A DNA stretch of 64,000 bases, taken from sequence record KX452698. One strand, written 5' to 3'. The position numbers and the translations under genes are program-made. The stretch is from Shigella phage KNP5. Of the stretch, positions 1 through 64,000 are shown piece after piece; within the stretch, counting starts at the first letter, position 1; the number at the start of each line of letters is the position of its first letter. The notes beneath the pieces are model-generated. The model made no database searches and had not been told where the DNA came from. It saw only the letters and a program-made list of their open reading frames with translations.

Positions 1-104
1 CCCATGGTCCACGCTTCATTAAATTGCTGTTCGCCTGAATTACTAAACCACTCGGCGAAAGCATTTAACACATCTTTAGAACCTTCAATAATTATCTTTG
101 CCAT
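1..104 (-). CDS. hypothetical protein, N-terminal part only (gene continues past window start)
   Basis: ATG at 104-102 overlaps the TAA of the upstream ORF (TAATG); open minus-strand frame to position 1; begins [19 protein letters not shown]. Confidence 0.4.
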   Translation of the reverse strand, partial: MAKIIIEGSKDVLNAFAEWFSNSGEQQFNEAWTM

Positions 105-466
105 TACAAGCTCTCAGTAAAGGTACGAGCGATAACGTCGCGCTGCTGTTCCGGAGTCAGAGAGTTAAAGCGAACTGCATAACCGGATACACGGATGGTC
201 AGCTGCGGATATTTTTCCGGATGCTTAACTGCATCTTCCAGAGTTTCACGACGCAGAACGTTAACGTTCAGGTGTTGACCACCTTCAATTTTAACTGTAG
301 GCTGTGGTTCAATTTCAATTTCACGGGTGTGCAAACCGTAGAAAATTTCTGGGTCTACAAAAGAGTCCTCTTTAAAGGTTTTAGAAACAATAATTCGTGC
401 TTGAATACCATCTTCAAAATAAATAGTACCTTTATGTGTGCCTTCAAGAATTTGATATGCTTTCAT
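104..466 (-). CDS. autonomous glycyl radical cofactor (GrcA/YfiD-like) protein
   Basis: 120 aa; C-terminus carries the glycyl radical motif [25 protein letters not shown] typical of GrcA and the PFL C-terminus; T4 is known to encode a YfiD homologue (Y06I). Confidence 0.75.
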
Positions 467-472
467 ATAACC

Positions 473-802
473 TCAATTAGAAAATAAATTTATCCAAGAC
501 TGTTCTTTAATTAAAAATGGCTCAGAATCATATGCCATTAAACTTTGGGTGATTAGTCCTTTAAAAGGTCCATCAATAAATTCCATGGTAAAATATGGAA
601 TTTTATTCATTAATCTTGCATTAGGAGCAGTACACAAAACTCTGCATCCTTTGAATACACCTTTTTGTAATTTGTATTGCTTAGGATAAAATTCGCTCAA
701 GACGTTGTTATTTGCCAAAATTTCAAAATGATTCACCAATTTATTTTTAATAGTTTTTGGCGAAAAATAAAGATATTCGAAAAGCTGTGTGTCTGTCATC
801 AT
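473..802 (-). CDS. hypothetical protein
   Basis: ORF track 473..853; start trimmed to the ATG at 802-800, which overlaps the upstream TGA (ATGA). Confidence 0.5.
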   Translation of the reverse strand: MMTDTQLFEYLYFSPKTIKNKLVNHFEILANNNVLSEFYPKQYKLQKGVFKGCRVLCTAPNARLMNKIPYFTMEFIDGPFKGLITQSLMAYDSEPFLIKEQSWINLFSN

Positions 803-1386
803 TGCATTCCGATTACGAAAAACTGCGGACGAGTAATACCACCAGTGCAACATTTACTATTGCAACAGTATTGTACAGTTTCAATATGAATATCGTAAAT
901 TTTATCCATATCGGGAGATTTAACCGGCTCATCGATTATATACAAAATCCGCGAAAGCGATAAACCTCTGAACTTGCTGCCTCTATTACCGATAAAACTA
1001 CGGACAGAATCAGTAAATAAACGAAAACGTATATCATCACTAGAATAACGAGAAAATTCTTTTTTAATGTGGCCTGCAGAAATTTTAGCGTAAGCTGAAG
1101 TATTAGAAAGAACAATAACTGTTCCACCGTCATACAGCCAATTAGCAGCAAAGTTAGTCACAGCAGTTGATTTACCGGATTGACGTCCACCATCTAGTCG
1201 AAGTGTGCAATACTGTTTGAGTAAGTCTTCAAATGGTAGGATATAATCGTTTTTACAAATTTCTTCTACTCTAGCATCAGAATGGTATGTAAAAGCATTC
1301 ATCAGGGATAGATAAGGACCAGTTAAAAATGTTCTCATTTTATTCTCTCTAAATTTGGGCCATTCCATGGCGCATGAATTGTCCAT
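799..1386 (-). CDS. P-loop NTPase-like hypothetical protein
   Basis: 195 aa; Walker A-like GGRQSGKST and Walker B-like ILYIIDE; no family recognised. Confidence 0.55.
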   Translation of the reverse strand: MDNSCAMEWPKFRENKMRTFLTGPYLSLMNAFTYHSDARVEEICKNDYILPFEDLLKQYCTLRLDGGRQSGKSTAVTNFAANWLYDGGTVIVLSNTSAYAKISAGHIKKEFSRYSSDDIRFRLFTDSVRSFIGNRGSKFRGLSLSRILYIIDEPVKSPDMDKIYDIHIETVQYCCNSKCCTGGITRPQFFVIGMQ

Positions 1387-1491: not shown

Positions 1492-1965
1492 TTATTTGAA
1501 TGATTTGACGTACTGAATAGAGCCTTTGCTATTCACGAAAGCGATTTTACCATTTTTGTTATACATGGTAGCAGTACGCTGATAACCATAAGTTTGTTTA
1601 CCAGATTGATAACCAACTAATGCAAAATTATCTTCACCCATTTTATTCTGCTTCGCGCGGATACGTTCATGACCATGTGCCATAAGAACCTTAGCGTCGC
1701 CAGTTGCAATGGATCTACGAGTTTTTTCATCTTCAACTGTATTAACAAAGTCGTCAAATGAATCAAATTTAGCGTGAGATTTATTATACAGTTTTCCATC
1801 TACTGCATAATTATATCCCTGTACATCCATCTCAACTTCTGTACCATCATCCAATACAGCAGTGATTTTTTGACCTTTTTTAAATTTCAAAAGATCAGTA
1901 AAAGATTCAGCGATAATTTGAGAATTAATAGCTGCTTCAGTGATAAATTCTTGATATGTTTTCAT
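1492..1965 (-). CDS. head internal protein (IP-like) with N-terminal capsid targeting sequence
   Basis: 157 aa; begins MKTYQEFITE, matching the T4 IP capsid-targeting sequence with I-x-E protease sites (ITE, IAE); late promoter just upstream. Confidence 0.7.
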   Translation of the reverse strand: MKTYQEFITEAAINSQIIAESFTDLLKFKKGQKITAVLDDGTEVEMDVQGYNYAVDGKLYNKSHAKFDSFDDFVNTVEDEKTRRSIATGDAKVLMAHGHERIRAKQNKMGEDNFALVGYQSGKQTYGYQRTATMYNKNGKIAFVNSKGSIQYVKSFK

Positions 1966-8218: not shown

Positions 8219-8294
8219 TGGTCGAGACAGTAGGGATCGAACCTACGACCTAGGACTTAGAAGGTCCTTGCTCTTCCTTCTGAGCTATGCCTCG
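8219..8294 (-). tRNA. tRNA-Arg (anticodon UCU), CCA encoded
   Basis: hand-folded cloverleaf: acceptor CGAGGCA/TGTCTCG, anticodon loop CUUCUAA, T-loop TTCGATC. Confidence 0.85.
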
Positions 8295-8298
8295 TATT

Positions 8299-8373
8299 TG
8301 GCGGACATGCATGGATTCGAACCATGGACCAATTGATTAACAGTCAACTGCTCTACCACTGAGCTACACATCC
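8299..8373 (-). tRNA. tRNA-Asn (anticodon GUU), CCA encoded
   Basis: hand-folded: D-arm GCTCAGTGGTAGAGC, anticodon loop CUGUUAA, T-arm CATGG-TTCGAAT-CCATG. Confidence 0.8.
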
Positions 8374-8377
8374 AAAT

Positions 8378-8464
8378 TGGTGGGGAGTGATGGAGTCGAA
8401 CCACCCGAGTCGCAATGACAATGGATTTACAGTCCACACCGCTACCTCTACGGGATAACTCCCC
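8378..8464 (-). tRNA. tRNA-Tyr (anticodon GUA), class II long variable arm, CCA encoded
   Basis: perfect 7-bp acceptor GGGGAGT/ACTCCCC, anticodon loop CUGUAAA, long variable arm; D-arm slightly irregular. Confidence 0.65.
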
Positions 8465-8476
8465 TAATTCTTAATT

Positions 8477-8551
8477 TGGTGGCCCTGGGTGGAATTGAAC
8501 CACCATCTGGCGATTATGAGTCGCTTGCTTGAACCTTCCAGCTACAGGGCC
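8477..8551 (-). tRNA. tRNA-Ile (anticodon CAU, lysidine type; Met not excluded), CCA encoded
   Basis: anticodon stem-loop GCGA-CUCAUAA-UCGC resembles bacterial tRNA-Ile2; acceptor GGCCCTG/CAGGGCC. Confidence 0.8.
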
Positions 8552-8552
8552 T

Positions 8553-8628
8553 TGGTGCTGATTGACGGAATCGAACCGCCGACCTTCTCATTACAAGTGA
8601 GTTGCTCTACCTACTGAGCTAAATCAGC
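8553..8628 (-). tRNA. tRNA-Thr (anticodon UGU), CCA encoded
   Basis: acceptor GCTGATT/AATCAGC, anticodon loop CUUGUAA. Confidence 0.85.
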
Positions 8629-8633
8629 AAAAC

Positions 8634-8723
8634 TGGCGGAGGCGATAGGATTTGAACCTATGAGTCGCCGGAGCGACTGCCGGTTTTCAAGACCGGTGCA
8701 TTAAACCACTCTGCCACGCCTCC
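8634..8723 (-). tRNA. tRNA-Ser (anticodon UGA), class II, CCA encoded
   Basis: acceptor GGAGGCG/CGCCTCC, anticodon stem-loop CCGGT-CUUGAAA-ACCGG, long variable arm. Confidence 0.85.
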
Positions 8724-8725
8724 AG

Positions 8726-8799
8726 TCTCCATACAAGGATTTGAACCTTGGACCTCCTGATCCCAAATCAGGCGCTCTACCAAACTGAGCTACACGGAG
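8726..8799 (-). tRNA. tRNA-Pro (anticodon UGG), CCA not encoded
   Basis: anticodon stem-loop CCTGA-UUUGGGA-TCAGG, T-arm CAAGG-TTCAAAT-CCTTG. Confidence 0.8.
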
Positions 8800-8809
8800 T
8801 AAATTAAAT

Positions 8810-8883
<74 letters not shown>

Positions 8884-8888
8884 AAATT

Positions 8889-8975
8889 TGGTGCGAGAAG
8901 TGGGACTCGAACCCACAAGGAAATCATTCCGCAGCATTTTAAGTGCTGTGCCTTTACCAATTTGACCATTCTCGC
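8889..8975 (-). tRNA. tRNA-Leu (anticodon UAA), class II, CCA encoded
   Basis: acceptor GCGAGAA/TTCTCGC, anticodon stem-loop CAGCA-CUUAAAA-TGCTG, long variable arm. Confidence 0.85.
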
Positions 8976-8976
8976 G

Positions 8977-9049
8977 CTGGGAATAAAGGACTCGAACCTT
9001 TGCATCCTGGAATCAAAATCCAGTGCCTTACCAACTTGGCTAATTCCCA
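8977..9049 (-). tRNA. tRNA-Gln (anticodon UUG), CCA not encoded
   Basis: acceptor TGGGAAT/ATTCCCA, anticodon stem-loop CTGGA-UUUUGAU-TCCAG. Confidence 0.8.
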
Positions 9050-63550: not shown

Positions 63551-64000
63551 AGACCAGTTACCTCATGAAAATCACCAAATACATCCTCGAATGTATTAGC
63601 TTTAGTTTTATCTTCACGTAAACGAATCGCAATCGGAAGAAATAATTTAACGTAATCAGTGCGGCCATCAGATTTTAACCAACCGTTACATTCGCACTCT
63701 AGAATTTTTCCAATATAATAATTTTGGTTTTCCATGATGCGAGTACGGTCAAGTTCATGCGATTTTACACCGGCTTTATCTTTTAAGCCTGAACCAGCAT
63801 TTACTTTAATTTTTCCACACTCTGATTCAAGAATAAATCCACCCGCTTTAGTAGGGTCTTTACGGTGAGGATAAATTCCTACAATTTTTAAATCAACATC
63901 AATTACTTCTTTAAATTTATAAAGATTTTTTGAACGAGCATTTTCCCATAATCCATCGGTATTTTTGAGAATAATACCTTCAAGACCTTGGTCAATATAC
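63547..64000 (-). CDS. 30: DNA ligase gp30, C-terminal part (gene continues past window end)
   Basis: minus frame open from 64000; ...GIILKNTDGLWENARSKNLYKFKEVIDVDLKIVGIYPHRKDPTKAGGF...FGDFHEVTGL matches the T4 DNA ligase C-terminus; ORF-track 63547..63735 is its tail. Confidence 0.88.
   Translation of the reverse strand, partial: YIDQGLEGIILKNTDGLWENARSKNLYKFKEVIDVDLKIVGIYPHRKDPTKAGGFILESECGKIKVNAGSGLKDKAGVKSHELDRTRIMENQNYYIGKILECECNGWLKSDGRTDYVKLFLPIAIRLREDKTKANTFEDVFGDFHEVTGL

Follow-up and report, generated by a model that had tools for sequence, protein, structure and literature searches.

A 175-nucleotide segment identical to Escherichia coli grcA within vs.6, a predicted glycyl radical cofactor gene of T4-type phages

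The window analyzed here is the whole stretch of 64,000 nucleotides from Shigella phage KNP5 (KX452698), a T4-type phage genome with homologues of T4 lysozyme e, denV, and nudE just to the right of the vs.6 region. Near its left end, an open reading frame (ORF) on the minus strand begins with an ATG at positions 464-466, ends with a TAA at 104-106, and encodes 120 amino acids (Table 1). The product matched the Pfam family PF01228 (Gly_radical) with 66.9 bits (E, 2.6e-18; cut-off, 22.2), and it matched phrog_1209 end to end (1.4e-62), with residues 1-120 on profile positions 1-121. The predicted radical glycine (G95) is encoded at positions 182-184. The protein is the orthologue of T4 Vs.6/Y06I and a predicted 14-kDa autonomous glycyl radical cofactor. 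Over positions 1-1500, the window matched Escherichia phage KNP1 at 100% identity and the other top records listed at 96.7-99.4%.

Table 1. Features of the vs.6 locus, with positions counted along the window
Feature	Position	Strand	Description
vs.6/Y06I-type coding sequence	104..466	-	Predicted 120-aa phage GrcA-like autonomous glycyl radical cofactor; called from the ORF, Pfam, phrog_1209, and identity to T4
Glycyl radical loop RVSGYAVRF	167..193	-	Residues 92-100; inside the Pfam match; aligned with PFL 697-759
Phage-type 5' half (gene nt 1-178)	289..466	-	AT-rich; homologous to the N-terminal half of GrcA, from which it diverged long ago
Host-identical patch	114..288	-	175 nt identical to E. 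coli grcA nt 200-374; encodes EGGQHLNV...ARTFT
Phage-type tail	104..113	-	Final 10 nt with the stop codon; shares sequence with the beginning of the downstream ORF
Start of vs.5-like ORF	1..104	-	Begins with an ATG (102-104) that shares bases with the vs.6 stop (TAATG); continues beyond the window
Shine-Dalgarno-like GAGG	471..474	-	4 nt upstream of the vs.6 ATG, read from TAATTGAGGTTATATGAAA; putative ribosome-binding site of vs.6

A promoter and terminator scan of positions 1-2500 gave counts no higher than the shuffle level. The idea that a GAA to GAG change in the tail of vs.6 provides a better ribosome-binding site for the downstream ORF was unsupported, as T4 retains GAA. That downstream vs.5-like ORF comprises 73 amino acids in a close relative (L096, 2363-2584). 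The T4 reference vs.5 has the first 17 residues in common with it and then continues in another frame (L002, 3382-3558), pointing to a frameshift either in T4 or in how it was annotated. A 'WFSNSGEQ' N-terminal domain like that of the vs.5-like ORF was also observed upstream of vs.6 in Klebsiella phage KPV15 (L119, 1501-1992). On the other side of vs.6, the vs.8-like protein (799-1386, minus strand) carries a P-loop-like GGRQSGKST and is weakly similar to the terminase large-subunit ATPase (phrog_2, 4e-6); its gene is labelled 'large terminase subunit' in some GenBank records, and, in the ORF finder's list, 55 nt at its 3' end (799-853) also belong to the vs.7-like ORF. Farther along, ten tRNA genes (Arg, Asn, Tyr, Met, Thr, Ser, Pro, Gly, Leu, and Gln) are clustered at 8219-9049 on the minus strand.

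In T4, vs.6 lies at 63557-63919 of NC_000866, between vs.7/vs.8/denV and vs.5/regB. Its product, Vs.6 or Y06I (NP_049730; RefSeq name, autonomous glycyl radical cofactor GrcA), is the orthologue of our protein, with equal length and 118/120 identical amino acids. The two copies differ by two amino acids (T47A and R73H) and by three synonymous changes in the last 13 nt. As in T4, the window copy is flanked by vs.7, vs.8, and denV in one direction and by vs.5 in the other, within the regB-denV early-gene cluster, and this synteny was matched by the annotations of near-identical genomes. PMC8683613, summarizing Wagner et al. (2001), describes only two spare-part proteins as validated, namely Y06I and E. 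coli YfiD/GrcA: PFL-AE puts a glycyl radical on both, and both bind oxygen-cleaved pyruvate formate-lyase (PFL), restoring its activity. The gene and its function are already known, and their confirmation here adds nothing new.

The relationship to GrcA differed between the two halves of the protein. In BLASTP against E. coli GrcA, residues 61-120 aligned with GrcA 68-127 at 60/60 identity, and residues 22-60 were approximately 36% identical. Matches in the PDB included GrcA (6OWR; 8e-42, residues 22-120) and residues 697-759 of PFL (1H16/1CM5; 4.9e-26). A sequence-only reading of this DNA had proposed that the C-terminal ~60 residues, with the RVSGYAVRF loop, are close to GrcA and PFL, that the N-terminal half is different, and that T4 encodes a homologue able to repair oxygen-cleaved PFL. 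The Pfam match and the fully identical C-terminal residues bore out the first proposal, the BLASTP alignment agreed with the second, and the identity to Y06I, together with the biochemistry given in PMC8683613, supported the third. When the N-terminal halves alone of phage proteins and host GrcAs were compared as profiles (hhalign), they aligned over their whole length (probability, 96.8%; E, 2.1e-10; 62 columns). Because of this alignment, Vs.6 is a full-length, anciently diverged GrcA homologue and not a piece of host protein joined to an N-terminus from elsewhere. The product of the 5' half was identical to the N-terminal half of E. coli GrcA at 19/67 amino acids, versus 42/60 for that of Jiaodavirus. 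Measured against the GrcA/YfiD family (TIGR04365, IPR011140), Vs.6 is a small stand-alone glycyl radical protein (~14 kDa, 120 aa) with the RVSGYAVRF loop, a PF01228 match above the gathering score, a C-terminal module like PflB ~697-759, and an N-terminal half homologous to that of GrcA. Its score of 153.4 bits falls below the GrcA equivalog cut-off of NCBIfam TIGR04365 (170; E. coli GrcA, 233.9) because the N-terminal half has diverged.

A previous comparison placed vs.6 among the few ORFs of unknown function kept in all T4-like genomes examined and suggested a role in nucleotide metabolism (PMC1524935). Along these lines, the enzyme served by Vs.6 might be the phage's own anaerobic ribonucleotide reductase, NrdD, instead of host PFL. 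Both NrdD and NrdG are encoded by T4-like phages, oxygen cuts NrdD too at its radical glycine, and vs.6 co-occurs with the nrdD/nrdG genes across T4-like phages (PMC1524935). However, the module of our protein is identical to that of GrcA and aligned with PFL 697-759, and the best NCBIfam matches were GrcA, GrcA2/3, and PFL, with no NrdD model among the matches listed. In addition, the biochemistry reported in PMC8683613 concerns PFL and PFL-AE, and T5-like phages carry the gene as well. We therefore regard direct service to NrdD as very unlikely, while an indirect link through formate supply is possible.

The N-terminus of Vs.6 (MKAYQILE) invites comparison with T4 capsid-targeting sequences, in which case the protein would be packaged in the head and cut by the prohead protease. 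MKAYQ resembles the MKTYQEFI start found, for example, in the neighbouring ORF at 1492-1965 (MKTYQEFITEA), and ILE fits the (L/I)xE rule for prohead cleavage. Only MK.YQ is held in common with the MKTYQEFIAE-type start of T4 internal proteins, however, and T5-like homologues, which lack that system, start with MKAYQNLKSG. Moreover, the Glu is missing in the Karamvirus, Yersinia-phage, and Krischvirus versions, and in the profile comparison the segment aligned with the GrcA N-terminus MITGIQITK. Capsid targeting is thus hardly plausible, and the sequence-only reading was right to set the resemblance aside; the MKAYQ start, common to the T5-like homologues, is instead a feature of the GrcA-like phage family. 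The ORF at 1492-1965 (minus strand), with its canonical start, is an internal virion protein gene (DUF7412, phrog_3155) located between vs.8 and denV. The arrangement of internal-protein genes around vs.6 is unlike that in T4: denV and e are only ~60 nt apart (1975-2945), so that neither ipII nor ipIII of T4 lies there, and the internal-protein loci have been rearranged.

At the nucleotide level, the 3' part of vs.6 stood apart from the remainder of the gene. The longest exact match between vs.6 and E. coli grcA covered 175 nt (Table 1), which is beyond chance. The last 185 nt of the gene (104-288) contained only two differences from E. coli grcA, both synonymous and both within the last 10 nt, where the window reads GAGAGCTTGTAA and E. 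coli reads GAAAGCCTGTAA. In a blastn search of 5426 complete E. coli genomes, this stretch was found in all of them in the 95-99% identity band (best, 98.9%). The edges of the pairwise alignment were sharp, with identity beginning at ...TTGAAGGTGG and ending at the stop codon. Over the last 13 nt, each phage was 2-4 positions off E. coli, and up to 3 positions differed among phages. The base composition changed at the same boundary: the 5' half has a GC content of 0.33 and a third-position GC content (GC3) of 0.20, whereas GC3 is 0.42 in the patch and 0.42-0.43 in E. coli grcA, within a window of 35.5% GC. For the entire 64-kb window, the patch was the only E. coli chromosomal match found by megablast in every genome, and positions 22001-64000 gave no match at all to the E. 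coli genomes. Among the matches listed, the only one besides grcA, with lower-identity matches in positions 1-25000 also counted, was the tRNA-Tyr stretch, with a 91.5% match to a tRNA-Tyr on a 101.8-kb plasmid of E. coli O111:H8.

The gene that carries this patch is old. A tblastn search revealed vs.6 homologues in 1587 phage records, among them T5-like Demerecviridae and T4-like phages that infect Klebsiella, Enterobacter, Yersinia, and Aeromonas. The phages represented in phrog_1209 (Jiaodavirus, Slopekvirus, Karamvirus, Krischvirus, Aeromonas T4-like phages, and T5-like Demerecviridae) have the architecture, MKAYQ-type start, and conserved module seen in Vs.6. Their modules, unlike that of the window, differ from E. 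coli grcA at 28-56/183 nt, and Jiaodaviruses carry a K. pneumoniae-type patch instead. From this distribution, vs.6 is an old gene of T4-like and T5-like phages. The sequence-only reading had taken the gene to contain host-derived sequence, which holds for the 3' 175 nt identical to E. coli grcA and fails for the rest, an old phage gene. It had also expected low nucleotide identity to host grcA combined with conservation across T-even phages to speak against recent acquisition. This treated an old, conserved gene and a recent acquisition as mutually exclusive, yet both hold: the gene is conserved and old, and its 3' 175 nt are identical to E. coli grcA, so that this patch is recent. Homologues of vs.6 were also observed on T4-like IMG/VR contigs of up to ~150 kb (L111-L116 and L123). 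Their modules are nearest to Pasteurellaceae grcA, or to Pantoea grcA in L115 (30-39 differences), and the N-terminal half that they encode (MKAIQIIDDF...SIWLIEDNKARCLVAK...) falls between those of host GrcA and of the coliphage proteins.

To place the patch among host alleles, its 183-nt module was compared with grcA from 80 enterobacterial and Pasteurellaceae species, across which it was closest to E. coli (2 differences). The E. coli module itself differed from those of Citrobacter, Klebsiella, and Salmonella by 13, 24, and 29 nt, respectively. In a neighbor-joining (NJ) tree of the 170-nt patch, Tequatrovirus and Mosigvirus sequences formed an exclusive clade with Escherichia in 187/200 bootstraps. 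An ancestral capture of grcA followed by purifying selection alone, with no recent exchange, could in principle keep the module host-identical, because the peptide is extremely conserved: Citrobacter phage Margaery and the IMG/VR contigs L104-L106, compared over the module only, encode the 60 residues of E. coli GrcA. Synonymous sites are not protected by selection on the protein, however. In Margaery, the sequence specifying this same 60-aa peptide departs from that of E. coli at 28 nt, so that protein-level selection alone does not account for the nucleotide identity. Other T4-like genera likewise encode almost the same peptide with 28-56 nt differences, and peptides identical or near-identical to that of the window occur at 28-37/183 nt differences, against 0/175 in the window, where GC3 also rises from 0.20 to 0.42 at the boundary. 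Identity to the module of the window was bimodal among phage records, with 641 at 95% or above, 4 at 90-95%, and 862 below. The synonymous-site data in practice refute purifying selection alone, which we consider scarcely credible.

Identity by itself gives no direction, and the 3' end of E. coli grcA could also have been acquired from a T4-like phage. Against this, the patch has a host-like GC3 of 0.42, matching the rest of grcA, inside a phage of 35.5% GC; the E. coli module sits beside that of Citrobacter in the enterobacterial grcA tree (13 differences); and all 5426 E. coli genomes carry the module at the ung-grcA locus. Transfer from phage to host is close to untenable in light of these data, and the composition and the placement of E. 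coli next to Citrobacter argue for transfer from host to phage. The best reading of the 3' patch is a recent host-to-phage gene conversion within an old gene.

Comparison of phage alleles pointed to more than a single event. T4-type and Mosigvirus/JK45-type alleles differed at 18-23/180 nt in the 5' half (~11%), with flanks 66-89% identical. When the alleles closest to E. coli were compared (window, L093, L094, L097, L098, and HX01), the T4-type and Mosigvirus-type patches differed at only 0-2/170 nt, with more differences in the JK45 and L095 patches. The 170-nt patches of the window and of L098 were identical to each other and to E. coli. The contrast between T4-type and Mosigvirus-type alleles was significant both for synonymous codon differences (11/53 in the 5' half versus 0/57 in the patch; p = 1.8e-4) and for all sites (20/180 versus 0/170; p = 1.3e-6). 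JK45 and its near-twin L098 showed the opposite pattern, with 2/180 nt differences in the 5' half and 6/170 in the patch. The six patch changes of JK45 were present in 0/5426 E. coli genomes, and another E. coli allele as the donor of the JK45 patch was rejected, as no genome was better than 96.5%. Given more differences in the patch than in the 5' half, none of them known from E. coli, one of the two patches was replaced after the other had aged.

These data bear on how often the host sequence was copied. A single recent host-to-phage conversion could have been followed by spread among Tequatrovirus and Mosigvirus through phage-phage recombination in co-infections. T4-like phages recombine freely, the patch is the locally most conserved region, where crossovers would cluster, and it is identical in alleles whose flanks are only 66-89% identical. 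The private changes of JK45, absent from all E. coli genomes, likewise look as if copies age. Nevertheless, several phage lineages stand at 0/170 relative to the E. coli allele, so that such an event would have to be very recent relative to the lineage split, and the Klebsiella-type patch of Jiaodavirus needs at least a second host-to-phage event. We consider a single copy followed by spread possible, although rather doubtful. Repeated copying from the host and one recent copy with phage-phage recombination cannot be separated with these data. It is likely that the patch was renewed or passed on at more than one time, and the six changes of JK45 suggest that some patches are ageing rather than being refreshed.

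A counterpart in Klebsiella phages supported exchange with a second host genus. The patch of the Jiaodavirus KPV15 was identical to K. pneumoniae grcA at 158/160 nt, with a GC content of 0.56 in the module versus 0.38 in the flanks. Its last 23 nt contained 8 differences from the host and were identical to those of the related Jiaodavirus PKO111. In the NJ analysis, 164/200 bootstraps placed KPV15 together with K. pneumoniae and K. variicola, and the K. pneumoniae module was at least 90% identical in 138 phage records. Between KPV15 and PKO111, the patch (90.6% identity) was only slightly more diverged than the flanks (93-98%); because this contrast is weak, the Klebsiella case rests on host identity and GC content. 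For the PKO111 patch, the best candidate donor among the 80 species representatives plus K. pneumoniae and K. variicola reached ~86% over the module. Together with the E. coli-type patch, the Klebsiella-type patch implies at least two transfers from host to phage. The tract in each of the host-matched cases ended 10-23 nt before the stop codon, and a polymorphic phage tail was kept. As the tract lies inside the conserved module and the phage tail is kept, homology-dependent gene conversion is favoured over illegitimate capture of a fragment. Compared with close relatives, the KPV15 homologue (L119, 2001-2362) has a 1-nt deletion in its 5' half that leaves open only a 51-aa ORF over the module, reflecting either a sequencing error or a pseudogene.

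The Krischviruses JSE (L090, 1492-1908) and SFHK24 (L180, 1267-1683) differed at 5/234 nt upstream and at 48/183 nt in the module, with 3' modules reading LLREMLLDAVEH in SFHK24 and MSRDLLLDAVAN in JSE. The difference is a module swap, with no donor among the 80+ host species compared. Host matching of the patch may be under selection or may follow neutrally from homology. The Klebsiella-type residues L77 and E81 were present in two genera of Klebsiella phages; Enterobacter phage ENT3 has residues not matching those of its host. The modules of the Slopekvirus Rpl1 (L087, 1501-1863) and the Pseudotevenvirus Margaery (L086, 1501-1863) are closely similar, and L77 and E81 of Rpl1 arise through multi-nucleotide codon changes (GAA to CTG and AAG to GAA), which may reflect conversion over a very short tract or selection to match the host.

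Collectively, we assign a probability of roughly 0.8 to the reading that this gene is a vs.6/Y06I orthologue with a spare-part role, an old gene whose module was overwritten by E. coli grcA and, separately in Jiaodaviruses, by K. pneumoniae grcA. In this scheme, the host activase PflA would set the radical on Gly95, as reported in vitro for T4 Y06I, and the C-terminal module, mimicking PflB 697-759, would dock on PflB whose glycyl radical domain had been cut by oxygen, restoring PFL activity. The same activity is expected of the window copy because its functional module is identical to that of GrcA; its expression, radical activation, and benefit are proposed by analogy with T4 Y06I, for which the data are in vitro only. 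Under low or fluctuating oxygen, the output of acetyl-CoA, ATP, and formate could then continue after host expression is shut off, and the phage may bring its own spare part because host gene expression stops on infection. Formate could in turn act as the reductant of the phage class III ribonucleotide reductase NrdD, a link that would reconcile the suggested role in nucleotide metabolism (PMC1524935) with the PFL biochemistry. In the Tequatrovirus/Mosigvirus lineage, ~175 nt of the most conserved module would have been overwritten by E. coli grcA through homology-dependent (homeologous) gene conversion during infection, and a similar event would have occurred independently in Klebsiella Jiaodaviruses with K. 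pneumoniae grcA as the donor.

A broader proposal, to which we give even odds, is that the conserved 3' module is a recurrent landing pad for host DNA, ~160-175 nt of vs.6 being repeatedly overwritten by the allele of the current host. The E. coli type in Tequatrovirus/Mosigvirus, the K. pneumoniae type in Jiaodavirus, and the donor-less module swap in Krischvirus would then be instances of one process. If true, the module would offer a natural, datable record of host-to-lytic-phage gene conversion and possibly a marker of recent hosts. The patch might also be selected, as the spare part has to fit host PflB and PflA.

Our search of the open-access literature found no description of a host-grcA nucleotide patch, although it may have been noticed in key older papers. 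Nucleotide identity to host grcA is unmentioned in PMC1524935, PMC2211322, PMC13450708, and PMC8683613. Two points weigh against the proposed exchange: T4 degrades host DNA, and no documentation of host-to-T4 recombination was found in the literature examined. The vs.6 gene is a textbook-level T4 auxiliary gene, indicating that coliphages invest in host anaerobic energy and formate metabolism in the oxygen-fluctuating gut. The added result is the exact 175-nt E. coli patch in an old phage gene and its independent Klebsiella counterpart. The value of the finding lies in the nucleotide mosaic, a clear trace left in nature by homologous exchange that carried bacterial chromosomal DNA into virulent, host-DNA-degrading phages, with host-type patches seen independently for two host genera. 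As T4 and E. coli are tractable, the rate, enzymes, and selective benefit of such conversions are directly measurable.

Set beside known systems, vs.6 resembles its T4 orthologue most closely. T4 vs.6 also carries an E. coli-type patch at its 3' end, where 3/183 nt differ from E. coli. E. coli GrcA/YfiD (PDB 6OWR) is a full-length homologue that shares the 60 C-terminal residues and the 175 identical nucleotides, whereas the N-terminal half of Vs.6 is diverged (19/67) and 7 residues shorter, and vs.6 is located in an AT-rich phage early-gene cluster rather than at the ung-grcA locus. The C-terminal domain of PflB (PDB 1H16, 697-759), the part replaced by the spare part, has the RVSGYAVRF loop and flanking helices in common with Vs.6. 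It terminates an enzyme of 85 kDa, whereas Vs.6 is a separate protein of 14 kDa and is closer to GrcA than to PflB. Cyanophage psbA is an auxiliary metabolic gene with host-phage intragenic recombination. Both psbA and vs.6 are phage copies of a host metabolic gene that appear to exchange internal segments, leaving mosaics with host-like patches. Unlike cyanophage psbA, the present case involves a virulent coliphage that degrades host DNA, an exact patch of ~175 nt, and a repair cofactor rather than a core enzyme subunit.
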